Assembly: GCA_964398185.1 (NCBI GenBank)
Contig: CAYNML010000003.1
Location: 16,303-80,302, forward strand
Length of the DNA: 64,000 bases
DNA from: an uncultured Anaerolineae bacterium
GTDB lineage: Bacteria; Chloroflexota; Anaerolineae; Fen-1058
Direction: 5' to 3'
A model generated the notes under the pieces. It searched no databases, had not been told where the DNA came from, and saw nothing but the letters and a program-made list of their open reading frames with translations. The first letter of the stretch is position 1; each line of letters begins with the position of its first letter. A program made the position numbers and the translations under genes. Positions 8,831-50,414 of the stretch are shown here, in pieces.

Positions 8831-8842
8831 TTTTCACTCATC

Positions 8843-19906: not shown

Positions 19907-20064
19907 GAGAGGGCCTCGCGCACGGAGACAGTCTAATCGAAAGTGGCTGTTTGTCAATTGCCAGTAGTTTGACGAAACCAACTTCATCGGGTACAACCAA
20001 CGTGCGCCCGCACTCGATCGGCTTGCCGCCGGTAGAGTGCGAGTTTTTGTGTGAGGAGTGCCGC

Positions 20065-20817: not shown

Positions 20818-20870
20818 TGAGTAACGAGTAAGCCGCGTTTTACTCATTACTCGTTACTTGTTACGCGGAA
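20806..20870. repeat. iterated-word palindrome (GTAACGAGTAATGAGTAACGAGTAA / TTACTCATTACTCGTTACTTGTTACG) spanning the ATPase stop and the ATPase-permease spacer
   Basis: the left arm encodes the terminal ESNE* and gives stops in all frames; the right arm is the inverted complement. Confidence 0.7.
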
Positions 20871-20873
20871 ACG

Positions 20874-23483: not shown

Positions 23484-23485
23484 GT

Positions 23486-23560
23486 GGTTGTTGGTTGTTG
23501 GTTGTCGGTCGTTGGTTGTTGGTTGTTGGTAGTTGGTTATGCACAGCGACCAACAATCGC
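23486..23560. repeat. GGTTGTT heptamer microsatellite (about 8 units) followed by an inverted ACCAACAA segment
   Basis: direct inspection; starts 3 nt after the permease TAA, ends 10 nt before the HlyD start. Confidence 0.7.
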
Positions 23561-23569
23561 AGTGGAGGG

Positions 23570-24890: not shown

Positions 24891-27800
24891 TTATGGCCTG
24901 ATGGCTTCCGTGAGAACCACGCGCTGCTGCGCGGCATCGATCGCGTGTGTGCCGCTGACGGGCAGGCGGCCGGCGGGCTCATACAACCCGATCGCGATGC
25001 GGTATTCACCCGGCGGCACATTCGCCAGCGGAATGAGCAACGTCTCGGTGATCACTTCGTTCGCGATCCAGCGCGAGGTGGGATAGGCGTTGTGGCGCGG
25101 CATGGCGTCCCACTGCGCGACGATGGTCTCGGTGGCCGGATCAAAGATGTGCGCGAAGACTTTGTAGTTGCGGGTGATATCGCGCCGCGCCTGCCACGCC
25201 AGATCGATCTGCAGCGTATCGCCCTCGCGTTTCAGATCGTAACCCAGCAATTGAATCTGATCCCCGAAGACCGCATCGAGCGGCTGAGACATGGTCGGTG
25301 CGTTGAAGTTGCGGGCGGGCGGCTCGATGGCGCGCCACGCGTGCGGATCAAGATGAATGCCGTCGATGGTCGTGCGGCCCACTTCTGCTTGCGAGGCGAC
25401 ACGATAGAGGATCACGTCGAGCGCATAGACTTGATCGCGCGGGAGATCGGCGGGCAGATCGAGTGTGTATGCGTCGTTAAGCGTGCCCGGCTGCCACGCG
25501 CTGGTCGGCTGAAAGCCATAGCCGGGCTGCGTATCGAGTGAAGTCCAGACTTTGCCAGAAGAATCGTGCAGCCGCAGCGAGATGCCGTAGTTCGCATCTG
25601 TCACACCAGAGATCGCCCACTGCAGCAGCACGTCGAGACGATCCAGATCATGCAGTTGCGTTTGCACTGCCGCGAGTCCGATGTTGGGCGTGAGCGATCC
25701 GAATTGGGGTGAGGTGGGCTCGTCGGAATGCTTGATCCAGATCGGCGCGAGGAACTGAGTATCATCGCCTACTTGCACCGACACGTAGTACATGCCGGTG
25801 GGTAAGGCGTAGGGCACATGTAATGTCACTCTGTTCTGCCCGTTCTGTACAGGCGTAACCGTCTGTGTGATCGGACTCGGCCCGCCGAACAGATGCGTGG
25901 ACGGTGCAACGAGCGAGACGGTGGCGCTTACCTCCGCCGACGAAGCAATGCTCCACTCCATGTCTACTTCTACGCTGCCCGTATCTGGCGCAAAGCGTGC
26001 CTCAGACTTCATCAGACTGATGTCGTCACGAAAAGCATAACCGCCCGGATTGTGATGCAGCCACGGCTTGCTGACGAAGTCCATCGTTAGGTCGCGCGCC
26101 TCAGCGGACACCGCATAAACGTGCTGTGCCACGGCGATGAAGAGACCGTATCCAAAAACGATCAACGCGGCCCACCACACATTGCGAGACGGAATCAAAT
26201 GGCGCAGATCAACATCCAGACCGTTCGTGTCACGATAAAAGCGAATCAACAAGAAGACGGTAAGTACCGCCAGTGTGATGAGCGAGACAGCTTCGCCAAC
26301 GGTGCGGAGGAGCGTATTACTCAACCACACGTCGAGACGGTCTCCGCCGTTCCGGGTTACATCCACTTGTACATAGCCCAGATCGGGCGCGGCGCGAGCG
26401 GGTATGTCCGCGCCATTTTGATAAGCCCGCCAGATCGGCCAGTAAATGATCGGCAAATTAAGGGTGGCCGTTTCCGATTGAGTGCGCACGCTCCACGTTT
26501 GCCAAGTGGCGCCCCATTGAGACTGCATGGAATCTACAGAGCCAGCAGAAACGATCGGGCGGAGAAGAATCGCCGTTGGATCGATCAACAGCGGCCCGGT
26601 GTGCGGTCGCGGGATCAGCGTGCGCGGCAGATACTCGGCGCGGATCGTTGTGCCGATGTTGCCGGTGAACGCTTCGTACAGCTGCAACCGTTGGGGCGTG
26701 ATCTCATCCGATCGGATGGGCAAGTAATCGGGGCGCAGGGTGAACAGCATTGACGCGACGAGGATCAATCCAACCGGCACAGCCACACGCGCCGGACGCG
26801 TGACAACCAGCGCTAGATACCCAATCGTCAACGAGGTGAACAACGCCTGAATCGACAGGAAGCGCCACGGGAATTGTGTGTACGATAGCAGCGGCAGCGT
26901 GTCCCACAACGGTTTGGACAACGGCGTGATCATGAACGTGGACAACGCCAGCCCGATCAGCACGAAGAGGCGGAACGAACTTGAATCCGTTTTAACGGAT
27001 TTGTCTTGAGCAGCGACCGAATTCATTCGGTCGCGTTTCCACGTCACGATCAAGGCAATGAGGCCCGCCACTGTCCCGATCGCTTGCACCAGCCCCATCG
27101 CAAACGGCGAATTCGATCCGGGCGCGGTCGTAATCGCGTAGTCGAAGCCGATCGAGTTTTGGATCAGGTTCGCCGCCCGGAAGTGTTCGGCATAGTTGAA
27201 GTAGCCCGTCGTCTGCACAGCGCCGACTTGCGTCAGGCTCGCTTCGCCCAAAGCAGGCAGCCAGAAGAACGCGGACAGCGCGAAGGCAAGCAGAAGTCCA
27301 GCGCCAATGCCAAGGATGGTGCGCCCCACTGGGAAGCTTGGCACTGTTACGTGTTGCGTATTGCGTATTAACCACGCACCACGCACTACGCCATACGTGA
27401 TGACGAACGGCGAGAAGATCAGCGCCGAGATGTTGTGCGTGAGAATCAAGCCGCCGTAAGACAGCGCCAGCAGCGGCCAATTGCGGGCGGAATCAAAGAT
27501 GCGATCGATCGACCACAAGATGAGCGGATAGAAGATGAACGCGTAGAACTCGCTCAGCGAATCGCCGCGCACGTAGACGTTGACCAGGTGAAATGGCGCA
27601 TAGAGGTAAGCGACCGCCGCCAGCCACGCCGCCCAACGAGTAGTGAAATGCCGCCGTGCCCAGCCGTACAGCGCGAAGCCCGCGCACACGAAGCCCAGCG
27701 TCTGCACGATCTTGATCGAGGTGAGCAGATCGAAGCCGAGGAAGTTGAAAATCGCCGCAAAGTAATACGGCAGCGCAGCATAGAAGTTAAAAAAGGGATA

Positions 27801-28058
27801 GCCCAGGCCGTAAGCCGCGTCAGGCATCCACCGCATGGGGAAAACGCCCTCGCGCAGGTTCGCCATCAATTGATGCAAGCGGAAAAACAAGAAGGGACTA
27901 TCGCCGCCGCCGCGCGTATTGACGAGTCCCGGCCCGGTCCACAACGGCAGCGCGGCCAGCAGCGCCGCAAGCAAAAGCGTCAGACCGATCCAGGGGATCG
28001 ATCTGACGCTTGCGCGAAAACCCGATTGAGGTTGTACGGCAGAAGCGGCGTTGGTCAC
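24891..28058 (-). CDS. large polytopic membrane protein, PTPS-related/YfhO-like putative GT-C glycosyltransferase with a C-terminal soluble domain
   Basis: N-terminal motif GGGDSPFLFFRLHQLMANLREGVFPMRWMPDAAYGLGYPFFNFYAALPYY typical of 6-pyruvoyl-tetrahydropterin-synthase-related membrane proteins. More than 12 TM segments. C-terminal domain (QLLGYD...FAHIFD...GEYRIAIGLYE) shared with both GT39 proteins. GTG start. Confidence 0.65.
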   Translation of the reverse strand: MTNAASAVQPQSGFRASVRSIPWIGLTLLLAALLAALPLWTGPGLVNTRGGGDSPFLFFRLHQLMANLREGVFPMRWMPDAAYGLGYPFFNFYAALPYYFAAIFNFLGFDLLTSIKIVQTLGFVCAGFALYGWARRHFTTRWAAWLAAVAYLYAPFHLVNVYVRGDSLSEFYAFIFYPLILWSIDRIFDSARNWPLLALSYGGLILTHNISALIFSPFVITYGVVRGAWLIRNTQHVTVPSFPVGRTILGIGAGLLLAFALSAFFWLPALGEASLTQVGAVQTTGYFNYAEHFRAANLIQNSIGFDYAITTAPGSNSPFAMGLVQAIGTVAGLIALIVTWKRDRMNSVAAQDKSVKTDSSSFRLFVLIGLALSTFMITPLSKPLWDTLPLLSYTQFPWRFLSIQALFTSLTIGYLALVVTRPARVAVPVGLILVASMLFTLRPDYLPIRSDEITPQRLQLYEAFTGNIGTTIRAEYLPRTLIPRPHTGPLLIDPTAILLRPIVSAGSVDSMQSQWGATWQTWSVRTQSETATLNLPIIYWPIWRAYQNGADIPARAAPDLGYVQVDVTRNGGDRLDVWLSNTLLRTVGEAVSLITLAVLTVFLLIRFYRDTNGLDVDLRHLIPSRNVWWAALIVFGYGLFIAVAQHVYAVSAEARDLTMDFVSKPWLHHNPGGYAFRDDISLMKSEARFAPDTGSVEVDMEWSIASSAEVSATVSLVAPSTHLFGGPSPITQTVTPVQNGQNRVTLHVPYALPTGMYYVSVQVGDDTQFLAPIWIKHSDEPTSPQFGSLTPNIGLAAVQTQLHDLDRLDVLLQWAISGVTDANYGISLRLHDSSGKVWTSLDTQPGYGFQPTSAWQPGTLNDAYTLDLPADLPRDQVYALDVILYRVASQAEVGRTTIDGIHLDPHAWRAIEPPARNFNAPTMSQPLDAVFGDQIQLLGYDLKREGDTLQIDLAWQARRDITRNYKVFAHIFDPATETIVAQWDAMPRHNAYPTSRWIANEVITETLLIPLANVPPGEYRIAIGLYEPAGRLPVSGTHAIDAAQQRVVLTEAIRP

Positions 28059-28143: not shown

Positions 28144-28701
28144 TTACGCGCTGCGCGCGCGGCGCAGAATGCTGTACGCCAGGAAACCGGCTGCGCCCAG
28201 CACGCCGATACCCAGCACGCCCAGCGCGATGCGCCCGATGGTCGACATGCCGCCCGTGCTGCCAGCGGTCGCCTGATTGTTCTCCGGTTGCGCGCCCAGA
28301 TTCACGCCGTAATTGATCTCGTACTGTGCGCCGCTGGCCAACGGCACAGCCCACTGCCCTGAAGTCGTCACCTGGCCCTTGACCTTGTTCACATCGGGTC
28401 GGGCTTGCACGGTGTACTGGCCCACCGCCAGATTCCCAAAGCAGTAGGCTTGATCAACTTCCGTGCCGTCGGTGCGATAGCTGGCCAGCCGGCCTGTTTC
28501 ATTGGACAGGATGAACGTGACATTGGCCAACAGCGGTTCATCGGGTGGCGTGTAGGTGCCGTCGCCATTAACATCGTTAAAAGCGCGCACGCAGATTTCG
28601 CCCACGCCTTGCGGCCATGGCGCGGCGGCCTGCGCGGCCGGCAAGCCTGCCAGCAAGGATGTGGCGACAACCAGCAAACTGATCCAGCGTATGAAGCGCA
28701 T
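28144..28701 (-). CDS. secreted SdrD-B-like (Cna-B-type) domain protein with a C-terminal TM anchor
   Basis: signal peptide; ICVRAFNDVNGDGTYTPPDEPLLANVTF...YCFGNLAVGQYTV; C-terminal Gly-rich TM + RRARSA. Confidence 0.6.
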   Translation of the reverse strand: MRFIRWISLLVVATSLLAGLPAAQAAAPWPQGVGEICVRAFNDVNGDGTYTPPDEPLLANVTFILSNETGRLASYRTDGTEVDQAYCFGNLAVGQYTVQARPDVNKVKGQVTTSGQWAVPLASGAQYEINYGVNLGAQPENNQATAGSTGGMSTIGRIALGVLGIGVLGAAGFLAYSILRRARSA

Positions 28702-28725
28702 GATGCGGTTCCTCTCTGCCTGAAG

Positions 28726-30276
28726 TTAGGCGCGCCGGCGCGCGATGACGAAGGCGCCGATGACGCCCGCCGCCAGCAGCAGCACCAATCCGCCGATGCC
28801 GGCCAGAATGCCGCCGATGTTCGATCCTCCGCCCGACGAGCTGCTGGATGATTCGCTGCCGCTGGTCGTGGTGGTGGCGCCTTCACCCGAGCGGCTGCCG
28901 AAGTCGATGCTGACCCTGGCGCCGGCTGACAGGGGCACACTCCACCGCTCGTCCGAGGTGGCCGTGGTATTGGGCGCGGGCTGCACGGCAATGCTGTAGC
29001 TGCCCGGCTTCAAATCACTCAGGCAGTGGGCGTCTGCGGCGTCGGTGGACACGTGCTCGGTCACCGTGGCGCCATCACCATCGATTACGGTGAACGTGGC
29101 GCCAGCGACTGGCCCTTCACCGGGATCGCGCAGCGCATCGGCGTTGACATCTTCATAGGCAAACAGGCACAATGTGGCCAGATTTGACGCGGCTGCTACC
29201 TCTGTCGCCGCTGCCGTCGGGGGCACGGCGGGTTCCGTCTGTGGCGTCGCAGCGACCGGCGCTTGCGGCGTTTCTGCCGACGGCTGTGCGGGGGCCGAGG
29301 TGGCGGTGGGCTGCGGCGCAGCCGTGGGCTGCGGGGCAGTGGAACCCGCGCCGCCTTTGATGATGATCTTCTGCCCGATCGAGAGAATTGACTGCGCGTT
29401 CAAGCCGTTCAACGCGTAGATGGTATCCAACGGCACATTGTATTGGAACGACAGTCCAAACAACGTGTCGCCGGCCACGACCGTATGCACGATGGCGCCG
29501 GTCGCATCGGGTTGTACCGCGGGCTGCGGCGGCGTGGTGGCCTGCGGTTGCGGCTGTGGCTGCGCGGCTGTGGTTGGCTGCGCCGTAGGCTGCGCGCCCA
29601 GAATCACCAGCTCAGCCTGATCCCACCACGCATCCAGGTGGATGGCGCCGGAACCGCGCCAGTCGTTGCGCGTGAACACCACTACCTTGCCAGCGGCCCC
29701 CACGGTGCCTTCCGTGCACAGCTGCCCCCAGGTATCATGTGGATTCCCCGCAGCCGACCACTTGATGTTGGGATTGTCCCAGTTGGCATCCCCCTCCAGA
29801 AAAATACCGACTTGCGAACGGCCATTCATGGCAGTAACTGACGGGTCGCCTTTGCCGTAGTCCCTGTTCTGGGCGTACAGGCGCGAGTGGGCGCAGAAGC
29901 GGACTTGCGACCCGGCCGGGATGCCGCCGACCGCCTGCGACCAACCCCCAATCCACGGGTCATACTGGCGGCCAATATGGGCCGAAGCATCGCCCTCCAG
30001 AACCAGCTCCGGGTACGCTCCAGAAGGATTGGTCTCGGCGCTGAAATCGGGGTTCAGCGCGTACTGCAATTCTGAAGCATTGTTCGGTTTCTCAATGATC
30101 TGGAACCAGCGGCCCCAACCGGTGGGCTGTTTGTTGCTGTCCGTGTAGGGCAGGTTCATGCCCGGATTTTGCAGCAGGTTGCCAGACTGAGCTTGCAAGA
30201 CAGCCGGTGCGACGGCCAGCGCCGCAGCGATCAGCGCCAGCACACTGCCCCAGATGATCAACTTCTTGATGTTCAT
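28726..30276 (-). CDS. surface protein: signal peptide, CBM4/9-like domain, LysM, PT/PQ linker, SdrD-B-like domain, C-terminal TM anchor
   Basis: NLLQNPGMN... start of a CBM_4_9-like beta-sandwich; LysM (IVHTVVAGDTLFGLSFQYNVPLDTIYALNGL); LCLFAYEDVNADALRD...; C-terminal ...ARRRA. Confidence 0.65.
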   Translation of the reverse strand: MNIKKLIIWGSVLALIAAALAVAPAVLQAQSGNLLQNPGMNLPYTDSNKQPTGWGRWFQIIEKPNNASELQYALNPDFSAETNPSGAYPELVLEGDASAHIGRQYDPWIGGWSQAVGGIPAGSQVRFCAHSRLYAQNRDYGKGDPSVTAMNGRSQVGIFLEGDANWDNPNIKWSAAGNPHDTWGQLCTEGTVGAAGKVVVFTRNDWRGSGAIHLDAWWDQAELVILGAQPTAQPTTAAQPQPQPQATTPPQPAVQPDATGAIVHTVVAGDTLFGLSFQYNVPLDTIYALNGLNAQSILSIGQKIIIKGGAGSTAPQPTAAPQPTATSAPAQPSAETPQAPVAATPQTEPAVPPTAAATEVAAASNLATLCLFAYEDVNADALRDPGEGPVAGATFTVIDGDGATVTEHVSTDAADAHCLSDLKPGSYSIAVQPAPNTTATSDERWSVPLSAGARVSIDFGSRSGEGATTTTSGSESSSSSSGGGSNIGGILAGIGGLVLLLAAGVIGAFVIARRRA

Positions 30277-30375
30277 GGTGTTACTTCTCCTTTGGATGTT
30301 AGCCGCAATTATAAACCATTTTGCGCGTGCGTCCGGGGTGGAACCACGGCGGGAAATGACGGGGTGATTGACAGG

Positions 30376-31923
30376 CTACAGCCAGGCATAGCGCCGGCGG
30401 CGGCGCAGCCAGATGACCAGGCCGATCAGCCCGGCGGCGCCCACCAACAGCCCGATCAAGAGTGCCACGTCCTCGATCGGGAAACGGTTCAACGCGGCCC
30501 GATCGATCTGCACACCAAGCGGCACGGCGACGATGGCATCGCTGGGCAGCGAGATGGACCAGCGCAGCTGTTGGGTTGCCACATAACCGATCGGGAGACT
30601 GATCAGCATCCGATAGGTGGTGGCGGGCAAGCCGGTGAAGCACGTCTCATGGCTGGCTGCCTCCAGCTGCGCATCAGCCACCACTTCATCCTGCGCATTC
30701 ACTACCTGCACCTGCAGCCCGGCTACTGGCAGCGGCGTTTCACCGGCCAGGAACAGCCCGTTGGCGTCGCTGTCGGCAAACGTGCGCAGGCAAATCGAGC
30801 CCCGCCCGGATCCGGTGCTGCCGCCGGTCGTCACAAAGGGATTGCCCGTCGATGGCTGAGCGGGGACCTGCGGCTTGGCCTCTGGCAAGGCGATGATCAA
30901 CTCGCGGCCCAACTCAATGCGCGAATCGGGCTTCAAGCCGTTCAGTGCCATGATCTGATCGACCGGCACCCCGTATTGCAGCGCCAGCGCGAACAGCGTG
31001 TCACCCGGCTTGACGATGTGTACAATGCGGCCGCCGTTGCTGGCCGTCGACTTGCTCTCAACTGCCACCATGGCCGGAGCCGGGTTCACAGTCACCGGCG
31101 CGCTGAAGCCGCCGCCCAGCGCAACCAGCTCGGCGTCGTCCAGATACATATCGTTGTGCTGCATGGGATTCTCGGGACGGGAGTAGGTGAACACGGTGAC
31201 CTTATTGGAACGCGCCACGGCCTGCACCTCGTACCGCTCGAACTTGTCGTAGACATCCTTCTCCGCCGACCAGACAACGTCCTTGCTCCACGGATCCGTG
31301 CCCCCCGTCGGATCGATGCCGATCTTCATGTGCATGCCGGTCTGGCCGAAGGAGAAATGCGGATTGGGCTGCAATCCATGCAGCTTGGTGGCCGACCAGG
31401 CGTGCATGTAAATGCTGAAGCGCAGCGCCATGCCGGGGCGCACATTCTCCACCACCTGGTAGACGCCGCCTTCGTGCACGCTCCAGAAGGTGAAGTACTT
31501 TTGCGAGTTCTCGCCGCTGCGGATGCGCGGCGGATCTTGCAGACTGCCGCGGGTGTCCCGGTATTCCGGCATATGCCACGCGACACAACCGTCCGGCGCT
31601 TTAGGGCTGCAGTAGTTGGGGTAAGTCTGATAATAATCCGGGGAGCTGGCATCCTCGTTGGGCGGCTGCCACCACGCCGACCACCCGTCGGCCATCATAA
31701 CGCTTTGCCACGGGCGCGACGGCAGCGGTCCATCACACGGTACGGCAATCCACGGCTTGCCGCCGGGAAAGCTGCAGCGTACTTTGTAGTCGCCTTCAAA
31801 GCCGGGGTTTTCCAGCAAGTTTCCGGACTGGGCATGGAGGCGGGTCAGCGGCAGCCACGCTGCCCCCAGGGCGATGATCAACCCTGCGATTAAGATTTTC
31901 GCCAGCGCCTGCTGCTTCATCAT
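30376..31923 (-). CDS. surface protein paralog: CBM4/9-like, LysM, SdrD-B-like, TM anchor
   Basis: same architecture (NLLENPGFEG; IVHIVKPGDTLFALALQYGVPVDQIMALNGL; ICLRTFADSDANG; ...WLRRRRRYAWL). Start at the MMKQQ signal peptide (31923), not the ORF start at 32145. Confidence 0.65.
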   Translation of the reverse strand: MMKQQALAKILIAGLIIALGAAWLPLTRLHAQSGNLLENPGFEGDYKVRCSFPGGKPWIAVPCDGPLPSRPWQSVMMADGWSAWWQPPNEDASSPDYYQTYPNYCSPKAPDGCVAWHMPEYRDTRGSLQDPPRIRSGENSQKYFTFWSVHEGGVYQVVENVRPGMALRFSIYMHAWSATKLHGLQPNPHFSFGQTGMHMKIGIDPTGGTDPWSKDVVWSAEKDVYDKFERYEVQAVARSNKVTVFTYSRPENPMQHNDMYLDDAELVALGGGFSAPVTVNPAPAMVAVESKSTASNGGRIVHIVKPGDTLFALALQYGVPVDQIMALNGLKPDSRIELGRELIIALPEAKPQVPAQPSTGNPFVTTGGSTGSGRGSICLRTFADSDANGLFLAGETPLPVAGLQVQVVNAQDEVVADAQLEAASHETCFTGLPATTYRMLISLPIGYVATQQLRWSISLPSDAIVAVPLGVQIDRAALNRFPIEDVALLIGLLVGAAGLIGLVIWLRRRRRYAWL

Positions 31924-31958
31924 TTGCCGTTCTCTGATACTTGATCCCCGCACCTTGA

Positions 31959-34268
31959 TCAACCGATCCCGGCATTTCCCCGCCGCTGCCGATAGATCAA
32001 CACACCGATACCGCCCGCGACCAAAGCGGCCAGCGCCAGCCCGATTGCGCCTTCGCCGCCCGACGCAGGTACTGCTTCCTGCCCGCTGATCCGGCTGCCA
32101 AAATTCACCGATGCAGTGGTGCCCTGCCCCAGGATCACGCTCCAACGCTGATCAGAAGTAGGTTCCGTGCCCGGCGCCGGTTCCACCGCCACCAGATACT
32201 CCCCAGGCGTCAGGCTTGTAAAGCAATGCGGCTCGCTCAGCCCGTCGGAATTGTATGACACGATCGGTTGGCCGGATCGTTCGGAAATCTGGAACAGGGT
32301 GTCTTTCACCAGCTCTTCGCTGCGCCCCAGCACGCCATCTGCGTTGACATCGTTAAAGGCGCGCACGCAGATCTGCGTTTTGCCGGTCGGCTCCATCAGC
32401 GCCACGGCCGTGGCCGGCAACGAGGTGGCCGTGGGTACGGGCGCTGACGCGTTCTCTTGCGGCGCGGGCGTGGCGGTCACGGCCGGCGCCGCTGCGATGA
32501 CCAGCTCTTGCCCCACGCGAATGAGCGAGTCCTTGGTCAGGCCGTTCAACCGCAAAATCTCGTCCATCGCCACGTTATATTGCAGCGCCAGACCGAAGAC
32601 CGTATCGCCCGCCTTGACGACGTGTACGATCGCTCCATTGGGACGCGGCAGCGCGGTGGGCGCGGGACCGGCATTGACGACTGAGGCCGGTTGTTGCCCT
32701 GCCGGCTGAGCGACAACCGGTTGCGCCGGCGCCGGCTGCACGACACCGGACGCATCGATGATCACCAGCTCGGCGTCGTCCACGTACACATCATTGTGCT
32801 TCTTCGCCAGCTGCGGCATGCTGTGCGTAAAGACCGTTACCTTGTCGCACTGCGCTGTGGCCCGCACCTCGTAATATCCAAACTCATCGTAGGAGTCATG
32901 CTCTGGACTCCAGACGACGTTGGGGCTCCACGGATCTTCGCCGCCGCACGGATCGATGCCGACCTTCATGTGCATGTTGGTTTGTCCCGACGACAGGAAC
33001 GTCGCGGGATCATCGTCGCGCATGTCCTGATTGGACGACCACGCGTGCATCCACGCGCTGAAGCGCAAGACGCTGCCCGCGGGCACCGCCACGGTCTGCA
33101 TCACGCCCGCCTGGTGCACGCTCCAGAAAGTGAAATACTTCTGTGAATTTTTGCCGCTGTGAATGCGCGGCGGTCCGGACACCACGCCTTTGGTATCACG
33201 ATATTCCGGATTGTGCCACGCGACGCAGTTCTCCGGCGCATTGCTATAGCAGTTGTTGGGGTGATCAGAATAGAAATTTGGATCGCCGCTATTCGTGTTG
33301 GGCGGATACCACCACGCTTTCCAGCCGATCGGCACCTGCACCGTATCCCAGCGAATGTACTCACGTTTGCCGTCAACCTTGCGCAGGTCCAGACCTTCGC
33401 ACGAAATATGATTCCACGGCACATCATTGGCGCGGCTGCACGGAATGTACAATTGACCCTCAAAGCCGCCGTTCGTTAACAGGTTCTGACCCAGCGCCAC
33501 GCTGATGGGCGTGGGCGGCAGCGCTGTGGCGGGCAGCGGCGTGGCCGTGGGGTATGACGCCTGCGCGGTGGCCGCGGCATTGCCGCTCAACGCTTCCAGC
33601 GCCACATCGTCCCAGTACACCTCGTTTTTGCGGCGCGCATCATCCGGCGCGGCATACAAGAATACAGTGACTTGCGCACTCTGCGCGCGCGCATAGACGC
33701 TGAACTGCTGCCACGAATCCAGCGCGTCGGCTTCACCCGACCAGACGACGCGCGCATCGTAGGGATTGGTACCGCCCCACGGATCGAGGCCGATGCGCAA
33801 GTGCATCTGCGTGCCGCCGTTGGACACATTCTGCGGCTGCTCGGACTGCGACGACCAGCTCTGCCCAAAGGCCGTCAAGTGCAGATCGCTGCCGGGCGTC
33901 ACGGCCACCTGCTGATACACCCCGGCCACATACGTGCCGAAATATTGAAAAATGCGCTGCGCGTTGCCCCCGCTGTGAATGCGATGATCGCACACAGCGC
34001 CGCACGGCGCGCTGGCGATGAAGTCGGGATGATTGTAGGACCACTCGGGTGAACCGGCCGGTCGCGGAATCCACCAGGCGGTCCAGCCTTGTCCCACGCT
34101 GGTCTGGCCGTCTTGCGTCACGAAGGCTCCCTCAAAACCGGGGTTCGTGATCAAGTTGCCGGCCGGGCGCGGGGCCGCCAATCCTTGTGTCGCCTGCGTC
34201 TGCTGCGGCGCCAACGCCAACGCCGCCAGCGCCAACAGGCCCAACGCCATCCATCTTTTCCACGGCAT
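31959..34268 (-). CDS. surface protein paralog with two CBM4/9-like domains, LysM, SdrD-B-like, TM anchor
   Basis: NLITNPGFEG and NLLTNGGFEG modules; LysM IVHVVKAGDTVFGLALQYNVAMDEILRLNGL; ICVRAFNDVNADG; C-terminal TM + RQRRG. Confidence 0.65.
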   Translation of the reverse strand: MPWKRWMALGLLALAALALAPQQTQATQGLAAPRPAGNLITNPGFEGAFVTQDGQTSVGQGWTAWWIPRPAGSPEWSYNHPDFIASAPCGAVCDHRIHSGGNAQRIFQYFGTYVAGVYQQVAVTPGSDLHLTAFGQSWSSQSEQPQNVSNGGTQMHLRIGLDPWGGTNPYDARVVWSGEADALDSWQQFSVYARAQSAQVTVFLYAAPDDARRKNEVYWDDVALEALSGNAAATAQASYPTATPLPATALPPTPISVALGQNLLTNGGFEGQLYIPCSRANDVPWNHISCEGLDLRKVDGKREYIRWDTVQVPIGWKAWWYPPNTNSGDPNFYSDHPNNCYSNAPENCVAWHNPEYRDTKGVVSGPPRIHSGKNSQKYFTFWSVHQAGVMQTVAVPAGSVLRFSAWMHAWSSNQDMRDDDPATFLSSGQTNMHMKVGIDPCGGEDPWSPNVVWSPEHDSYDEFGYYEVRATAQCDKVTVFTHSMPQLAKKHNDVYVDDAELVIIDASGVVQPAPAQPVVAQPAGQQPASVVNAGPAPTALPRPNGAIVHVVKAGDTVFGLALQYNVAMDEILRLNGLTKDSLIRVGQELVIAAAPAVTATPAPQENASAPVPTATSLPATAVALMEPTGKTQICVRAFNDVNADGVLGRSEELVKDTLFQISERSGQPIVSYNSDGLSEPHCFTSLTPGEYLVAVEPAPGTEPTSDQRWSVILGQGTTASVNFGSRISGQEAVPASGGEGAIGLALAALVAGGIGVLIYRQRRGNAGIG

Positions 34269-34418: not shown

Positions 34419-36464
34419 TCACGGCCCGATCGCGCCCGGCCCTTCATCTGCGGCGCCGCCCAGCAAGAGCGCCTGCTCGATCACCGGCGGCGTCGCTTCG
34501 CTCACGTTCACGCGCTGGTTCGTGGCCCGATCGTATAACCCCAGCTCGATCAGCAGCTGCGCCCGATCGGCCTGGGGCGGCACATCGATGAGGCGTTCAT
34601 CGATGATCACATCGCCCGGCCGCCACAACCGCAGCGGAAAGAAACCGCCGCCGCTGTCACCGTCGGCCGTGCTCACCACTTGCTTCACGTTCAACAGGTG
34701 CACGAAGAAGGTCTGATCAGACGCGATCGGCCGATCGGTTTGCCACAGTGTGCGCAGCCGCCAGTGCGTCTCGTCCACGGCCTCGACCGAATGGCCCAGC
34801 AAGCGCAGACCGTTTTCGAACTGCGCTTCGGCTTGCAGCGGCGCGCCGTCGAGCGGCTCGGTGCGCACGACGAGGTATCCCGTGTGCGGCTGCGGATCGA
34901 GATCGCCTTTGGCCGGCGGCCCGGCCTCGACCTGCACGCGCACCGGCACGGTGAGCGACGACAACGCCTGCGACCAGTCAGTATAGGGCCACAGAAACAA
35001 CGTGGCAGACTGGGTCGCGTCGAGCTGCGGCGCCATCTCAGCGGGAATGGGGATGTATCCGCCGCCGATCAGAAACGGCACGCTGGCCCAGTCGCGCGCG
35101 AACCGATCGGCGACATAGATCTGGCGGCCTTCACGGCGATCAGTGCGCGCCTCACGCGCCAACTGGACTCCGGCGTCTTCAAACATGAACGCCGTGGCGG
35201 GATTGACGGCATACGCGCTGTAATCGCGGATGGTCCACGCGGCCCCGACGATCAACACCGCGATAACGACGCCGTAACTCAAAACACGCTGGCCCCGCAC
35301 CTTCAGCCACTGCGCCAGTGTTTCGAGACCGATGGCGGGCACGATCAGCGCCACGGGCAGCACACCCACGGCGCGCAAAAAGTGCGGCGCGTCTTCGGCC
35401 AGAATCGTGGGCAGCAGCATGATCGGGATCCAGATCAACACGAACAGACTGGCCAGCTTCGACAATGGCGGCAGGCGCGGTGCAAAGCGCAGGTCAGGGC
35501 CGGGGCGCAGAAAATCGGGCAGCGGCTTGTACGGCGGAGGCGTCGGCCCCAACGCCGCGATGATTAAGCGGATCAAGCCCCACGCGAAGAAGATCACCAG
35601 GATCGGATCGAACACCGGGCGATAGGGCACATTGTGGCGTGCGATGCCGTCGCCGCGCCAGAAGAACATGCCCACCGCGGCGGCCACGCTGCGCCCCAGC
35701 GAGCCGAGCGGGTCGCCGTGACTGATCGCGGGGTTGAAGATCGACACGTCGCCGGGGCGGCCCATCACCATCTCCCACTGCGTCAAGGCGGTGATGATCA
35801 GCGGCAGCGCCACGACCAGCGTCGTGATCGTAAAAATGATCAGATTGCGCCACGGCAAGGTTTTGCGCCGCGTGAAGAGCAGGATGATCAACATCACGAT
35901 CAATGCCAGCGGCGTGAAGCGGCTGGCGAGATAGGTGTAGAACGACAAGCCGTAAACGATACCTGCGCTGATCCAGTGCAGCACGCGGCCCGATCGATAC
36001 GCCTGCACGCCCAGGCCGATCGACAGCGCGATGAATAACGGCAATGTTCCGGCGCGGAAACCGATCAGACTGAGATGAATCGGCCACAAGGTGATTGTGG
36101 CAATTGCGGCTGTGAGCAGGCCCACGCGCCGCCCGAACAACTCGCGCGCCATGAAGTACGCGGCGGGAATCAGCAGCGTGCCGACGATGGCGGCGGGCAG
36201 ACGCACCGCATACACACTGCGCCCCAGCCAGCCGATGCTCCACGCCATGAAGTAAATGAACAGCGGCTCGCGCCCGTTGTTGGCCGCAAAATACAGCGGT
36301 CGATCGCCGCCCAGCACGCGCAGCGCATCGAGGCCGTAATAAGCTTCATCGTGATACAGACCCGGCGGCCACGCGCCCAATTCGTAGAAGCGCACTGCGC
36401 CGGCGATCAGCATCAGCGCCAGCACCGGCCACCATTCCAGAAAGATGTTGCGAAGTGTTCTCAT
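34419..36464 (-). CDS. glycosyltransferase family 39 (PMT/ArnT-like) membrane protein with a C-terminal soluble domain
   Basis: LYHDEAYYG first-loop DE motif, PLYFAANNGREPLFIYFMAW, more than 10 TM; C-terminal domain FVHLLNVKQ...LLIELGLYD shared with 698..2659 and 24891..28058. Start at ATG 36464 (MRTLRN); the ORF could extend to 36593. Confidence 0.75.
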   Translation of the reverse strand: MRTLRNIFLEWWPVLALMLIAGAVRFYELGAWPPGLYHDEAYYGLDALRVLGGDRPLYFAANNGREPLFIYFMAWSIGWLGRSVYAVRLPAAIVGTLLIPAAYFMARELFGRRVGLLTAAIATITLWPIHLSLIGFRAGTLPLFIALSIGLGVQAYRSGRVLHWISAGIVYGLSFYTYLASRFTPLALIVMLIILLFTRRKTLPWRNLIIFTITTLVVALPLIITALTQWEMVMGRPGDVSIFNPAISHGDPLGSLGRSVAAAVGMFFWRGDGIARHNVPYRPVFDPILVIFFAWGLIRLIIAALGPTPPPYKPLPDFLRPGPDLRFAPRLPPLSKLASLFVLIWIPIMLLPTILAEDAPHFLRAVGVLPVALIVPAIGLETLAQWLKVRGQRVLSYGVVIAVLIVGAAWTIRDYSAYAVNPATAFMFEDAGVQLAREARTDRREGRQIYVADRFARDWASVPFLIGGGYIPIPAEMAPQLDATQSATLFLWPYTDWSQALSSLTVPVRVQVEAGPPAKGDLDPQPHTGYLVVRTEPLDGAPLQAEAQFENGLRLLGHSVEAVDETHWRLRTLWQTDRPIASDQTFFVHLLNVKQVVSTADGDSGGGFFPLRLWRPGDVIIDERLIDVPPQADRAQLLIELGLYDRATNQRVNVSEATPPVIEQALLLGGAADEGPGAIGP

Positions 36465-36516
36465 GGTTGTTCTCTTGCCAAAGCGCGAAAAGTATAACAC
36501 AATAGGCCGCACAATT

Positions 36517-36553
36517 CCCTCCCCCGCTTCGATTTTCAGGAGCGGGGGGAGGG
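36517..36553. promoter_or_regulatory. strong GC hairpin CCCTCCCCCGCT-N12-AGCGGGGGGAGGG in the divergent GT39/GT4 promoter region
   Basis: 12/13-bp inverted repeat with one bulge, 30 nt upstream of the GT4 ATG; candidate operator or 5'-UTR structure. Confidence 0.4.
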
Positions 36554-36582
36554 TCGGGGTGGGGGTGAGGTTGCACGTCGTC

Positions 36583-37719
36583 ATGCTTTCCAAAGCGCTG
36601 GTGATCGGCGCTTATCACAGCAAGCTCAAGCACATCGCCGCGCAGCCCGACGTGCGGCTCACGGCCCTCGTACCGCCCAGCTGGCGCGACGAGCGCGGCG
36701 AGTTGAAACTGGAACGCACCACGGGCGATGGCTACGACTTGATCGTCACGCCGCTGCGCTTCAATGGCAACTTTCACCTGCACTATTATCCGCAGCTCGA
36801 TCGTTTGTTGCAGCAGCTCCAGCCCGACCTGGTGCACATCGACGAAGAACCCTACAATCTGGCGACGTTTCTCGCCCTGCGATCCGCGCGTCGTCTCGGC
36901 GCACGCGCAATCTTCTTCAGCTGGCAGAATTTGCGGCGATCGTACCCGCCGCCGTTTCGCTGGTTCGAGCACTACACCCTGCAACACGCTGCCGCCGGCA
37001 TCGTGGGCAATGCAGATGCGGAACAGGTGTGGCGCGTCAAAGGCTATCGCGGCCCGTTGACGGTGATTCCGCAAGTGGGCGTTGAGCCGGAGGTGTTGAA
37101 GCCTCTGGATCGAAACCGGGATTCTACGACTGAACCTTCTCGCCATTCAAATGGAAGAATCCCGGTTGCTACGTTTGTCGTCGGCTACGCGGGGCGCTTT
37201 GTTGAAGAGAAAGGAATTGATGTGCTGCTGCACGCGCTGCACGATCTCGATGGCAACTGGCAGGCTGAGCTGGTAGGCAGCGGTCCGGATCACACCCGAT
37301 TGGCTGAGCTGGCCCAACGGTTGCAGATCGCCGATCGGGTGCGGTTTCTGCCGTGGAGGCCCTCCGCGCAAATGGTCGACTATTATCGATCGCTGAACGT
37401 GCTGGTCCTGCCCTCGCGCAGTCGATCGAATTGGAAAGAGCAGTTCGGGCGCGTGCTGGTGGATGCCATGGCCTGCGGCGTCCCCGTCATCGGCTCCACG
37501 TGCGGCGAGATTCCCCACGTCATCGGCGACGCGGGGTTGATCTTCCCCGAAGGTGATACGACGGCCCTGCGCGATCAGCTGCGCAGATTGCAGAACGATG
37601 CCGCACTCTGCCGCGATCTCGCGCAGCGCGGACGCCAGCGCGTGCTGGAGCGCTTCACGCAGGAGCAGATTGCGCGGCAGACGGTTGCGGTATATCAAAA
37701 CGTAATGCGTACTGTGTAA
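36583..37719 (+). CDS. glycosyltransferase family 4 (GT-B, group 1)
   Basis: C-terminal GT4 motifs (VLPSRSRSNWKEQFGRVLVDAMACGVPVIGS); GGTGAGG SD; start at 36583 rather than 36445. Confidence 0.8.
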   Translation: MLSKALVIGAYHSKLKHIAAQPDVRLTALVPPSWRDERGELKLERTTGDGYDLIVTPLRFNGNFHLHYYPQLDRLLQQLQPDLVHIDEEPYNLATFLALRSARRLGARAIFFSWQNLRRSYPPPFRWFEHYTLQHAAAGIVGNADAEQVWRVKGYRGPLTVIPQVGVEPEVLKPLDRNRDSTTEPSRHSNGRIPVATFVVGYAGRFVEEKGIDVLLHALHDLDGNWQAELVGSGPDHTRLAELAQRLQIADRVRFLPWRPSAQMVDYYRSLNVLVLPSRSRSNWKEQFGRVLVDAMACGVPVIGSTCGEIPHVIGDAGLIFPEGDTTALRDQLRRLQNDAALCRDLAQRGRQRVLERFTQEQIARQTVAVYQNVMRTV

Positions 37720-37760
37720 AAGCGAAGCACCTGTTACGTTTCACGCAGTACGCTTTACTC
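37703..37760. repeat. iterated-word palindrome (CGTAATGCGTACTGTGTAAAAGCG / CGCTTTAC..GCAGTACG..TTACG) spanning the GT4 stop and the GT4-GT4 spacer
   Basis: the left arm encodes the terminal NVMRTV* of the first GT4 and carries TAA in multiple frames. Confidence 0.6.
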
Positions 37761-37761
37761 T

Positions 37762-37770
37762 TGGTATAAT
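37762..37770 (+). promoter_or_regulatory. extended -10 element TGgTATAAT ending 6 nt before the ATG of the second GT4 (candidate leaderless transcript)
   Basis: perfect TGnTATAAT; no SD between it and the ATG at 37777. Confidence 0.4.
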
Positions 37771-37776
37771 CGCCGC

Positions 37777-38934
37777 ATGACTCAGTCAGCGCCACACGTT
37801 GCGATCAGCGCGCCCTTGCTGGCGCCAGTGGGCAGTTATCGCAGCGCAGGCATTCACACGTACATTCAACATTCGCTGCAACATCTGTCGGAGGCCGATC
37901 CGGATGTGCGCCTGACGTTGTTCACCGCACATCCACCGGCGGGACTGCCAAAAGCGATCGAGGTGCAGCGGCCGCGCTGGAACACCGATCGGCCTGCGTT
38001 ACGAATTTTGTGGGAGCAGTTGGCGCTGCCATCGGCGGTGCGGCGCGCTCAAGCCGCTGTCTTGCATGCCACGGCCTTCGTGGCCCCGATCGTTCAGACG
38101 CGCCCGACGGTCATCACGATCTACGACGTGAGCTTCGCGCTGTATCCGCAGCTCTTTCGCGGCTTCAATCAGACGTATTTGCGAGCGGGCACACGCTGGT
38201 CAGCGCCGCACGCACAGCGCCTCATCACGATCTCGGAGTGTGCGCGACGCGATGTGCACCGTTTGTACGGTGTGCCGCTCGATCGGATCACGGTGGCTTA
38301 TCCGGGCGTGGACGAAGCGCTGGGACCGGGTGATCCTGAGCGGGTTGAAGAATTTCGCCGCGCGAAAGATCTGCCGGAGAAGTTTGTGTTGTATCTGGGC
38401 ACGCTGGAACCGCGCAAGAATCTGGCAATGCTGGTGCGCGCGTTCGCGCAGCTGAAACGCGAATGCCCCGACGCGGTGCTGGTGCTGGCGGGCGGCCTCG
38501 GCTGGCTGGCGGATGACATCTTTGCGACCATTGAAGCGTGCGGTGTGCAAGACAGCGTGCGGCTGCCGGGCTTCGTGGCCGCAGAAGAGAAAGCGCTGTG
38601 GTATGCAGCGGCCACGGCGTTTGTGTTCCCGTCAATCTATGAAGGCTTTGGTATGCCGCCGCTGGAGGCGCTGGCCTGCGGCACGCCGGTGATTGCGTCG
38701 AATGCGGCGTCACTGCCGGAAGTGGTGGGCGAAGCCGGCCTGCTGCTCGCGCCCGATGACGTGCGCGGCTGGACGGCAGCGCTCAAGCGCGTCTGGATCG
38801 ATGCAGCCTATCGGGCTGAGTTGGCCGATCGGGGCGTGAGACAGGCGCAGCAATTCACGTGGCAAGCCACCTCCCGCCAGATCGCCCAAACCTATCGTGA
38901 CTTGATCATTGCTCACAAAGTCCCCGCAGCGTAG
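37777..38934 (+). CDS. glycosyltransferase family 4 (GT-B, group 1)
   Basis: EX7E-type C-terminal motif region (FVFPSIYEGFGMPPLEALACGTPVIAS). Confidence 0.8.
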   Translation: MTQSAPHVAISAPLLAPVGSYRSAGIHTYIQHSLQHLSEADPDVRLTLFTAHPPAGLPKAIEVQRPRWNTDRPALRILWEQLALPSAVRRAQAAVLHATAFVAPIVQTRPTVITIYDVSFALYPQLFRGFNQTYLRAGTRWSAPHAQRLITISECARRDVHRLYGVPLDRITVAYPGVDEALGPGDPERVEEFRRAKDLPEKFVLYLGTLEPRKNLAMLVRAFAQLKRECPDAVLVLAGGLGWLADDIFATIEACGVQDSVRLPGFVAAEEKALWYAAATAFVFPSIYEGFGMPPLEALACGTPVIASNAASLPEVVGEAGLLLAPDDVRGWTAALKRVWIDAAYRAELADRGVRQAQQFTWQATSRQIAQTYRDLIIAHKVPAA

Positions 38935-38971
38935 CGAAGCGGGATTGATCATTGTTCATTGCTCATTGTCT

Positions 38972-40396
38972 ATGTCTCGCTTTCCACGTTGGCTCATCCC
39001 GGCCGTGATACTCAGCGACATGGTGCTGATCAATGCCGCATTTCTGCTGGCCTATGAAGTCCGTTATCGCTGGCAGCTCTTCCGCCCGGTCGAGCCGGAG
39101 TTCGACAATCCCATCGATGTGTATTACCCGTTCATGCTGGTGCTGACGATCTTGTTGATCGCCGCGTACAAGATCGACAATGTCTATGTACCCCGGCGGC
39201 TGGGGATGTGGCTCGATCAGATGTCGCGCATCGTGCGCAGCACCATGATCGCCATGCTGATCATGATTGGCATCACCTTCATCTATCAGCCGTTCTTCTA
39301 TTCGCGGTTGATCTACCTGTACGCTACGATTTTGATCATCGCGCTGCTGGGGCTGGGACGGCTGCTGTGGGGCGTGGTGCTGGGCCAGCTGCGGGCGCGC
39401 GGCATTGGCGTATCGCGCGTGCTGATTGTGGGCGCAGGCGACGTGGGCCGCATGGTGATCCGCACCGTCATGGCGCAGCCGGAGTTCGGCTATCGCATCA
39501 TGGCGCTGGTGGATGATCATGTGGAGACGAGCGCGTTGTCGATCGGGCCGGTGCCAATGATCGAAGGGACACGGCGCCTGCCGCAGATCGTTGCGGAGAA
39601 GCACATCGACGAAGTGATCGTCACGCTGCCGTGGACGGACCACCAGCGCATCCTGGATATTTTTCAACTGTGCGAGAGTCTGGGCGTGCGGGCGCGCACC
39701 GTCCCCGATCTGTTCCAGCTGAGTTTGAACCGCGTGGATGTGGAGGACCTGGGCGGCGTGCCGGTGATTGGCTTGAAGCCGGCCTCGATTCGCGGCGCAA
39801 ACTTGATCGTGAAACGCATCATGGATGTGGTGCTGGGCAGCCTGATGCTGCTGATCGCTTCGCCGCTGATGATCATCTCGGCGCTGGCGATTAAGTTGGA
39901 TTCGCCAGGCCCGATCATCTTCCGGCAAAAGCGCGTGGGCGCGCGCGGCCAGGAGTTTGTGTTGTTTAAGTTCCGCTCCATGCGCGAAGGCGCGGACGAA
40001 GAGAAGGAACGGCTGCTGGATCTTAATGAAATGCAGGGGCCGTTGTTCAAGATGCGTTCGGATCCGCGCACCACGCGCGTGGGACGTTTCCTGCGCCGCT
40101 TGAGCCTGGATGAGCTGCCGCAGTTGTTCAACGTGCTGCGCGGCGAGATGAGTCTGGTGGGGCCGCGCCCGCACACCTCGGCGGAAGTGGCGCAGTATCA
40201 GAGCTGGCAGCGGCAGGTGCTGGAAGCGCCGCCCGGCTTGACGGGACTGGCGCAGGTGTCAGGTCGCAGCCAGTTGAGCTTCGACGAGCAGTGCCTGCTG
40301 GACATTTACTACATCGAGAATTGGTCGCCGGCACTGGACATCAAGATTCTGCTGCGCACGGTGCCGAAGGCGTTATCGGGTGAAGGGGCGTACTAA
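38972..40396 (+). CDS. polyprenyl-phosphate sugar phosphotransferase (WbaP/WcaJ-type), paralog of 9796..11208
   Basis: same conserved C-terminal catalytic motifs (FKFRSM, DELPQLFNVLRGEMSLVGPRP, GLTGLAQVSG); start at the ATG 38972 (MSRFPRW). Confidence 0.85.
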   Translation: MSRFPRWLIPAVILSDMVLINAAFLLAYEVRYRWQLFRPVEPEFDNPIDVYYPFMLVLTILLIAAYKIDNVYVPRRLGMWLDQMSRIVRSTMIAMLIMIGITFIYQPFFYSRLIYLYATILIIALLGLGRLLWGVVLGQLRARGIGVSRVLIVGAGDVGRMVIRTVMAQPEFGYRIMALVDDHVETSALSIGPVPMIEGTRRLPQIVAEKHIDEVIVTLPWTDHQRILDIFQLCESLGVRARTVPDLFQLSLNRVDVEDLGGVPVIGLKPASIRGANLIVKRIMDVVLGSLMLLIASPLMIISALAIKLDSPGPIIFRQKRVGARGQEFVLFKFRSMREGADEEKERLLDLNEMQGPLFKMRSDPRTTRVGRFLRRLSLDELPQLFNVLRGEMSLVGPRPHTSAEVAQYQSWQRQVLEAPPGLTGLAQVSGRSQLSFDEQCLLDIYYIENWSPALDIKILLRTVPKALSGEGAY

Positions 40397-44565: not shown

Positions 44566-44633
44566 ACTTGGCCTCAACGGACAGGATGTGAGAGTGACTG
44601 TGTGCCGGCAACCCGTGAGAGCCGGCTTTGCGC

Positions 44634-47887: not shown

Positions 47888-47922
47888 AAGTCTTCCACCC
47901 ATCCAGCAGTGTATCAAGGCCG

Positions 47923-49572: not shown

Positions 49573-49615
49573 AAGTCAATCGCTACCTGTTCAGATCTCT
49601 TGAGTGCCGGGCTTA

Positions 49616-50335: not shown

Positions 50336-50405
50336 GGCAATTTGCCTCTTGCCAGATATTGTAGAACCCATGTTCGTTTCCGTTGAAACATTCTTTCCAC
50401 ATAGC

Positions 50406-50414
50406 ACTATACCA
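50406..50414 (-). promoter_or_regulatory. candidate extended -10 (TGgTATAGT on minus strand) inside the AT-rich island 50336-50534
   Basis: sequence match; the region is about 42% GC against about 65% for the genome. Confidence 0.3.

Follow-up and report, generated by a model that had tools for sequence, protein, structure and literature searches.

A conserved Anaerolineae gene cassette encoding candidate wall-spanning, glycan-binding tethers between two GT-C glycosyltransferases

What role do four consecutive genes for related surface proteins, placed between two membrane-bound glycosyltransferases (GTs), play in the envelope of an uncultured member of the Chloroflexota? We asked this for a 64,000-nt stretch of DNA, hereafter the window, from an uncultured Anaerolineae bacterium (Fen-1058; assembly GCA_964398185.1, contig CAYNML010000003.1, positions 16,303-80,302 of the forward strand), in which region 28144-34268 holds four consecutive, co-directional minus-strand open reading frames (ORFs), G1-G4, each encoding a secreted paralogue. 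The best reading of the sequence evidence is that this array, together with the gene on either side, forms an operon-like block of a PMT_2-family GT-C enzyme, four anciently diverged paralogues and a YfhO/PTPS-related GT-C enzyme, which would be a conserved envelope cassette of the class Anaerolineae. Its proteins may serve as wall-spanning glycan-binding tethers, probably O-glycosylated, that work with the adjacent glycosyltransferases, a combined model that we regard as a serious candidate falling a little short of probable.

Four paralogues with a common membrane-anchored module

The four proteins are built from a small set of domains, among which the head is recognized by the signature NLLxNPGFEG ... 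HNDxYxDDAEL:

28144..28701, minus strand: G1, 185 amino acids (aa); signal peptide, SdrD_B-like beta-sandwich, Ser/Thr/Gly stalk, transmembrane (TM) helix and RRARSA tail, with neither head nor LysM.
28726..30276, minus strand: G2, 516 aa; signal peptide, divergent head (29617-30195), Pro/Thr/Gln linker and LysM (29356-29487); a 56-aa Pro/Thr/Ala linker after the LysM, then a C-terminal part (28729-29190) with SdrD_B-like module, Ser-rich stalk, TM helix and RRRA tail.
30376..31923, minus strand: G3, 515 aa; signal peptide, long-form head with two Cys-pair insertions (31054-31836) and LysM (30892-31020); C-terminal part (30379-30813) with SdrD_B-like module, TM helix and RRRRR tail.
31959..34268, minus strand: G4, 769 aa; signal peptide, short-form head N1 (33585-34172), linker and long-form head N2 (32733-33506); C-terminal part with LysM (32496-32624), linker, and SdrD_B-like module with TM helix and basic tail (31962-32390).

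The initial annotation had described four minus-strand genes for secreted proteins that all end in the same module, with a Gly-rich TM helix and an Arg-rich tail, and this was borne out by the ORFs, the signal segments and a four-way alignment. Each of the four proteins starts with a segment resembling a signal peptide and ends in a Gly-rich hydrophobic helix with Arg/Lys residues after it, and the C-terminal module (C-module) common to them comprises a Cys-pair beta-sandwich with a D-x-N-x-D-G...E motif, a short Ser/Thr/Gly stalk, the Gly-rich TM helix and the Arg tail, with C37, D43, C87, L91, Y96 and W117 (G1 numbering) invariant in the alignment. When all proteins were compared with one another by BLASTP, the C-modules aligned across the four at E 7e-6 to 3e-28 and the four heads (two in G4, one each in G2 and G3) at E 1e-5 to 6e-90, and the paralogy of G1-G4 is therefore far beyond chance. 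No further paralogues were found within the window. The genes are separated by gaps of 24-150 bp, and GGAG/AGGA-type ribosome-binding sites precede G1, G2 and G4. The ORF of G3 mechanically extends to a TTG at 32145, and its MMKQQ start was preferred because the resulting 515 aa fit the lengths of the orthologues (512-517 aa).

The C-module had been typed as SdrD-B/Cna-B, which held for the fold and, by Pfam, reached the cut-off in one of the four proteins. The structure model of G1 (alignment n=66) gave a signal helix, a beta-sandwich at residues 34-134 with predicted local distance difference test (pLDDT) values mostly >90, a disordered stretch at 141-157 and a TM helix at 155-184, and by this prediction the fold is an SdrD-B/CnaB beta-sandwich. 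The Pfam model SdrD_B (PF17210, cut-off 29.7 bits) matched G2 above its cut-off (33.6 bits, E 4.8e-8) and G1 (27.1 bits), G3 (25.3) and G4 (22.4) below it, at E 5e-6 to 1.5e-4. A Ca2+-binding loop is suggested by the motif C..[AT][FY].D.[ND].[DN][GA]...E, which was present in all four C-modules. A C-module profile search of 90% clusters was filled by G1 orthologues, and no other architecture emerged from it.

A LysM domain, annotated in three of the four proteins, was recovered by Pfam (PF01476, cut-off 20.9 bits) in G2 (45.8 bits), G3 (53.9) and G4 (52.9), at E 6e-12 to 2e-14 (G2 5.7e-12), with none found in G1, and in a search of PDB sequences the LysM region matched LytE and Thermus LysM proteins at E about 1e-10. 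With one canonical LysM each, G2, G3 and G4 resemble LysM wall-binding proteins such as AcmA, LytE and P60-type hydrolases, but they are devoid of a hydrolase domain and carry the LysM mid-polypeptide, between the membrane anchor and the distal head. The SdrD_B-type stalk domain likewise recalls the staphylococcal Sdr proteins and other microbial surface components recognizing adhesive matrix molecules (MSCRAMMs; SdrD, UafA); in contrast to these, the array proteins have, in place of a repeat array, a single B-type domain in which a Cys pair is conserved, are anchored by a TM helix and basic tail instead of LPXTG and sortase, and carry a head predicted to be a jelly-roll of carbohydrate-binding module (CBM) type instead of an IgG-like A domain, with the LysM inserted between stalk and head. 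Pro/Thr/Gln-rich linkers, annotated as joining the domains, were clear in G2 and G4, where they are also rich in Ala, and weaker in G3; the family-wide linker composition was 21% Pro, 18% Ala and 11% Thr.

We also considered whether the TM helix and Arg tail could be a cleavable sorting signal for a sortase, exosortase or rhombosortase, leading to covalent attachment to wall or lipid. The tripartite arrangement of a Ser/Gly-rich segment, hydrophobic helix and basic tail would agree with this, as would the GG-containing motifs of G1, G2 and G4, including a GlyGly-CTERM-like 'SGGGS' in G2. However, neither the four paralogues nor distant relatives share a conserved motif ahead of the helix, the cassette loci showed no sortase-like gene, and no sorting-signal model reached its cut-off, the weak matches covering only the generic helix and tail, so that we hold such processing to be extremely improbable. 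The known C-terminal sorting signals (LPXTG, PEP-CTERM, GlyGly-CTERM and others) were rejected, as NCBIfam scans of both whole proteins and C-terminal peptides were all sub-threshold; the best match, to LPXTG_anchor, scored 15.2 bits (cut-off 15.9) over model positions 3-32 and with no LPXTG in the sequence.

The head domain and its distribution

The heads had been annotated as CBM4/9-like, which proved right for the fold as predicted, while membership in the CBM_4_9 family is unproven by hidden Markov model (HMM) searches. The AlphaFold model of the head was all-beta (pLDDT 82.4, predicted template-modelling score 0.82) and its best matches in a fold search, which alone identified the domain, were glycan-binding modules; from this model the head is a beta-jelly-roll with a galactose-binding-like CBM fold. 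At the level of sequence, the head gave no match at E<=1 to Pfam or NCBIfam in the window proteins. The CBM_4_9 model (PF02018) matched neither G2, G3 nor G4 at E<=1 and none of 95 diverse relatives at E<=0.01, and PDB sequences compared with one head protein and two head profiles gave no match covering the head, for the profiles at E<=10. Compared with the jelly-roll families CBM61, CBM4, CBM22 and CBM16 (CBM_4_9), the head is thus alike in fold without sequence-level membership; it also differs from them in not being appended to a glycoside hydrolase, in its high conservation and, judged by the available names, its confinement to Chloroflexota, and in the two Cys-bridged insertions of its long form. 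This long form is that of G3 and of the second head of G4, the short form that of G2 and the first head of G4.

To place the family, a head-only profile was scanned against 1.84 billion representatives; 2,444 50%-identity clusters passed E<=1e-3, of which 1,582 reached E<=1e-10 and 368 reached E<=1e-30. Architectures were assigned with custom HMMs to the best 150 of the 2,444:

Head-LysM-SdrD_B-TM: 28 of the best 150 representatives.
Head-SdrD_B-TM: 11 of the best 150.
Head with 1-3 LysM and no TM helix: 41 of the best 150.
Tandem heads: 8 of the best 150.
Head alone: 44 of the best 150, probably often truncated ORFs on short contigs.

A Pfam scan of the 95 relatives found LysM in 58, SdrD_B in 29 (best E 3e-12) and SH3b or other domains in a few, the head itself being unmatched, and a second head-profile search added Head-LysM-SH3_3 proteins. 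By these sequence assignments the heads are always joined to envelope anchors, namely LysM, SH3b or SdrD_B-TM, if head-alone forms are set aside as probably often truncated. Three head-family proteins from other contigs that have no TM anchor (P0241, P0277 and P0288) share similar C-terminal ends, ...VYLPVILKNEK, ...VYLPIVVKR and ...VYLPVVVKNEE, which may represent a C-terminal motif not yet recognised.

Full-length relatives of G3 and G4 came from metagenome-assembled Chloroflexota only, under the names 'LysM repeat protein' and 'LysM peptidoglycan-binding domain-containing protein'. Genome-collection matches were to metagenome-assembled genomes of Thermoflexales, 'Chloroflexia' and Anaerolineae, and all organism names from the second profile search were Anaerolineae, Anaerolineales, Thermoflexales, Aggregatilineales or Chloroflexi; judged by such names, the head is a conserved module that has so far turned up in Chloroflexota alone. 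The early impression that this was not a described family holds for the libraries searched, where homologues were named only 'LysM repeat protein' or 'hypothetical protein', and no published description of the head-protein family or of the cassette was found in the literature.

The head showed 34% mean column identity over 25 diverse members, and this strong conservation is better accounted for by one conserved ligand than by varied environmental ligands. That bears on the possibility that the proteins are adhesins or substrate-capturing devices, with CBM-like heads binding environmental polysaccharides (plant, algal or extracellular polymeric substances) and holding the filament on its food source. 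Both the CBM fold and the sequence of surface anchor, stalk and distal binding head, which resembles the MSCRAMM adhesins SdrD and UafA, would suit that role. Substrate-capture CBMs usually diversify, however, whereas this head is unusually conserved across the class; related heads pair with peptidoglycan-binding modules, one of them (at locus L012) beside a LysM-M23 peptidase; and the conserved cassette contains no glycoside hydrolase, sugar ABC transporter or regulator, its invariant neighbours being the biosynthetic GT-C, GT4 and Bac_transf enzymes. Environmental capture therefore appears quite unlikely.

The L012 protein, a Head-LysMx3 protein without TM anchor encoded outside the cassette and near that LysM-Peptidase_M23 gene, could instead be taken to suggest that LysM and head together recruit or activate peptidoglycan hydrolases or synthases, as wall-remodelling regulators or scaffolds like DipM and ActS. 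Weak NCBIfam matches to DipM, ActS and LytE-type proteins point the same way, but they are confined to the LysM region and far below cut-offs, some cassette members have no LysM and no hydrolase gene lies in the cassette, making this role very improbable. As functional assignments DipM, ActS and LytE were rejected, since the matches span the LysM region only.

Placement between two GT-C enzymes

The array was annotated as bracketed by GT-C enzymes, and Pfam scores above cut-off on either side agreed:

34419..36593, minus strand: PMT_2-family GT-C enzyme, first gene of the co-directional block; PMT_2 (PF13231) 41.7 bits against a cut-off of 26.1, E 1.8e-10.
24891..28058, minus strand: PTPS_related/YfhO-like GT-C membrane protein of 1055 aa, last gene of the block; PTPS_related (PF10131) 40.4 bits against 26.4, E 1.8e-10.

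The likely true start of the PMT_2 protein is MRTLRN at 36464, giving 681 aa with about 10 TM segments, HDEAYYG in the first loop after TM1 and a soluble C-terminal domain of ~250 aa. With about 10-11 hydrophobic segments in the two proteins, this polytopic topology, the acidic first-loop motif of the PMT_2 protein and the HMM scores together assign both flanking genes to the GT-C glycosyltransferases. Although they belong to different Pfam families, their C-terminal extracytoplasmic domains of ~250 aa are homologous (24% identity, BLASTP E 3e-9), and the same domain, which has no Pfam annotation, recurs in a second PMT_2 enzyme of the window (E 9e-8); sharing of this domain is consistent with a common acceptor or partner. 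That second enzyme, of PMT_2/PMT family, lies at the left end of the window (590-2659, plus strand), is 30% identical to the cassette enzyme and has no head gene adjoining. No head-like domain was found inside the flanking GT-C proteins, and solved GT-C structures gave no sequence match to either at E<=1.

The conservation of this arrangement was assessed in comparison loci L001-L014 from related contigs, with synteny counted only where the contig extends to the flanking side in question. In the Thermoflexales contigs L001-L006 the order PMT_2, G4, G3, G2, G1, YfhO-like was kept at 61-80% identity, including the headless G1. The other loci of interest were:

L007, L008, L009: G4-, G3- and G2-like genes in the same order; G1 absent from L008 and L009, the L007 contig ending inside the G2-like gene.
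L011: two head genes.
L010, L013: one head gene, without LysM.
L014: one head gene with LysM, the contig ending soon after.

In the deeper Anaerolineae loci, as far as the contigs extend, the flanking genes proved orthologous to the two GT-C enzymes of the window (36-57% identity). Overall, PMT_2 stood directly upstream of the head genes in 12/12 distinct loci with that side visible and the YfhO-like gene directly downstream in 11/11, so that conserved synteny with the GT-C genes was stronger than first guessed. The bracket persisted down to about 33-37% identity and across head-gene copy numbers of 1-4, and all TM-anchored head proteins examined belonged to a cassette running from a PMT_2 GT-C enzyme through 1-4 head proteins to a ~1,050-aa YfhO/PTPS-related GT-C enzyme. 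Minimal cassettes encode a single head protein without LysM (L010, 2330-3631; L013, 8001-9320), and in L010 the head joins the SdrD_B-TM module via a roughly 60-aa, almost pure Pro/Thr linker. As the paralogues are much less alike than the orthologues and the gene order is conserved, the duplications are taken to be old, and the four paralogues are probably non-redundant.

By sequence the cassette GT-C enzymes fall into the PMT_2 and PTPS_related families, a role as GT39 mannosyltransferase or as teichoic-acid YfhO enzyme being putative for them. In Caldicellulosiruptor bescii a GT39 gene lies beside, and is co-oriented with, genes for CBM-bearing Pro/Thr-linker proteins and is required for their glycosylation (PMC6151902), and in Cellulomonas Pro-Thr linkers are heavily mannosylated (PMC12757957). 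These precedents make it plausible that the PMT_2 enzyme O-glycosylates the linkers of the head proteins. The likeness to GT39/PMT systems, as in Cellulomonas, Mycobacterium and C. bescii (Cbes_1864 with CelA), is that of a PMT-clan GT-C gene adjacent to and co-oriented with genes for secreted CBM-type Pro/Thr-linker proteins. In the present cassette, by contrast, the enzyme matches PMT_2 and not PMT (PF02366; no match at E<=1, with weak matches for the L001 and L013 orthologues), a second, YfhO/PTPS-related GT-C enzyme is always present and the proteins that would serve as acceptors are anchored in the membrane and non-catalytic; the cassette showed no Ppm1/GtrB-like synthase.

The second enzyme can be compared with YfhO/GtlB-type GT-C enzymes, which glycosylate teichoic acids in Bacillus and Listeria. 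The 1055-aa protein resembles these in its weak YfhO and significant PTPS_related similarity, both within the GT-C/PMT clan (cf. PMC7801869), but its YfhO score is below cut-off (21.7 against 28.5, E 7.5e-5), about 400 aa at its C-terminus form an additional domain, and no CsbB/GtrB-like or GtcA-like partner was seen near the cassette. Teichoic acids are not known in Chloroflexota.

The same evidence could mean that the array proteins are mainly acceptor substrates, that is, surface glycoproteins O-glycosylated by the two GT-C enzymes and forming a protective or lattice coat, with heads that pack protein-to-protein and are not lectins. This would be in line with PMT_2 always being immediately upstream, with Pro/Thr/Ala-rich linkers family-wide, with the Ser-rich juxtamembrane stalk of G2 and the nearly pure Pro/Thr linker of L010, with the C. 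bescii GT39 and Cellulomonas precedents, and with retention of the headless G1 in Thermoflexales. The head is nevertheless the most conserved part of the proteins, occurs also TM-less outside the cassette with LysM or SH3b and has glycan-binding modules as its best fold matches, whereas the G3 linkers contain few Ser/Thr residues; we consider a glycoprotein coat unlikely, while leaving it some weight.

The surroundings of the cassette in the window were these:

36445..40396, plus strand: divergent glycan-precursor operon by Pfam, with GT4 (36445-37719; true start probably further downstream), GT4 (37777-38934) and a Bac_transf/CoA_binding_3 phosphoglycosyl transferase (38909-40396).
7206-11208, plus strand: MurE-like Mur ligase, then a soluble GT2 and a second Bac_transf/CoA_binding_3 phosphoglycosyl transferase.

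The array had been said to sit between two glycan-assembly sets. This holds on one side, where the GT4-GT4-Bac_transf genes abut it, but the GT2 and Bac_transf genes (8843-11208) are about 13 kb away, with chaperone and ABC-transporter genes between. The divergent operon was kept in L001-L006 and L008. Immediately to the left of the cassette lies a MacB-type ABC exporter set (19951-24793, plus strand; ATPase, FtsX/MacB_PCD permease and HlyD-like adaptor), and an HlyD/YknX-like gene is also found near the cassette in L002 and L003. These two loci have a gene for an Rce1-like CPBP intramembrane protease directly after the YfhO-like gene (L002, 17002-17934; L003, 15088-16020), which is not at that position in the window. 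Further to the right are a Tad-type pseudopilin-like cluster (45830-50407, minus strand) encoding a 695-aa TadE-like, a 549-aa Tad/VWA and a 263-aa TadE-like protein, near it a gene for a 724-aa protein with a proprotein-convertase P-domain (42403-44577), and a gene (52446-58571, plus strand) for a bacterial alpha-2-macroglobulin of 2041 aa that contains MG, bait-region, TED and Big_5 domains, preceded by a pentapeptide-repeat gene (50535-51305) and one for a Gmad2 Ig-like protein (51335-52360). Long ORFs (350-570 aa) rich in Arg/Gly/His that run antisense to real genes or overlap them (e.g. 23537-24610, 30169-31893 and 38963-40174) are spurious, as expected in DNA of 60-65% GC.

A tether model and its meaning for the Chloroflexota envelope

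In the favoured model of glycan-binding tethers, a Sec signal peptide would export each surface protein, while the C-terminal TM helix with its positive-inside tail would keep it tethered to the cytoplasmic membrane. Outward from the membrane, the short Ser/Thr/Gly juxtamembrane stalk would be followed by one rigid SdrD-B/CnaB-type sandwich, probably Ca2+-binding and disulfide-bonded, as a membrane-proximal stalk, after which extended Pro/Thr/Ala-rich linkers would cross the wall and the LysM would dock on peptidoglycan. The CBM-fold heads, of which each protein except G1 has one or two, would then lie at or beyond the outer wall face and bind a glycan. The most likely ligand would be an endogenous envelope glycopolymer, which we favour because the head is strongly conserved, its fusion partners are wall anchors and the invariant neighbours are biosynthetic and not degradative. 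The divergent Bac_transf-GT4-GT4 operon may make the lipid-linked precursor of this glycopolymer and the two GT-C enzymes, which may be co-transcribed with the array, may transfer or extend it outside the membrane, with the head proteins tethering and organising membrane, peptidoglycan and outer glycan layer. The Pro/Thr-rich linkers and Ser/Thr-rich juxtamembrane stalks could be O-glycosylated by the adjacent PMT_2-type enzyme.

Several observations weigh against this model. No sequence-level tie of the head to any CBM family was found in the Pfam, NCBIfam and PDB searches, and G3 has short linkers with few Ser/Thr residues. Some lineages dispense with LysM, as cassette members in L010 and L013 are without it, and peptidoglycan docking is therefore not universal. 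The GT4-GT4-Bac_transf operon is absent from L011 and L013, and neither a polyprenyl-phosphate-sugar synthase nor a Wzx flippase or Wzy polymerase was found in the cassette; the GT2 at 8843-9796 was tried as such a synthase and is unsupported, having no TM helices. A promoter and terminator scan of the gene block, finally, gave counts no higher than in shuffled sequence.

By analogy, the architecture would work like a hybrid of MSCRAMM-type stalked adhesins, LysM wall-binding proteins and CBM-bearing secreted proteins with glycosylated linkers. All of its domains have known folds, and what is new is a class-specific head family for which the searched copies of Pfam and NCBIfam contain no model, the joining of this head to LysM, to an SdrD_B stalk and to a C-terminal TM anchor, and its invariable placement between two GT-C enzymes. 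With its CBM-like predicted fold the head is a candidate new CBM family. A bolder version of the tether model, to which we give a small but real chance, is that the head does represent such a family and that the cassette is the core machinery for an enigmatic extra envelope layer of filamentous Anaerolineae, in which a lipid-linked glycan from the operon would be polymerised or transferred by the GT-C enzymes and fixed to membrane and peptidoglycan by four non-redundant lectin tethers, possibly covalent glycan acceptors, as a Chloroflexota-specific substitute for teichoic-acid, SLH (S-layer homology) or S-layer anchoring.

The Chloroflexota envelope has been described as comprising, besides an 'inner layer' and an 'outer layer', a protein layer whose composition is not known, and it is debated whether the phylum is monoderm or 'neoderm' (PMC13319060). 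As the TM-anchored head proteins examined always lie between two membrane glycosyltransferases, they probably help to build or organise this envelope, and the cassette offers a class-wide candidate set for its layers, with membrane-to-wall-to-outside tethers linked to two extracytoplasmic glycosyltransferases and a glycan-precursor operon. The head family is in addition a useful annotation handle for Anaerolineae genomes, and the importance of the cassette would rise if it indeed organises an uncharacterised layer of the Chloroflexota envelope (PMC13319060).

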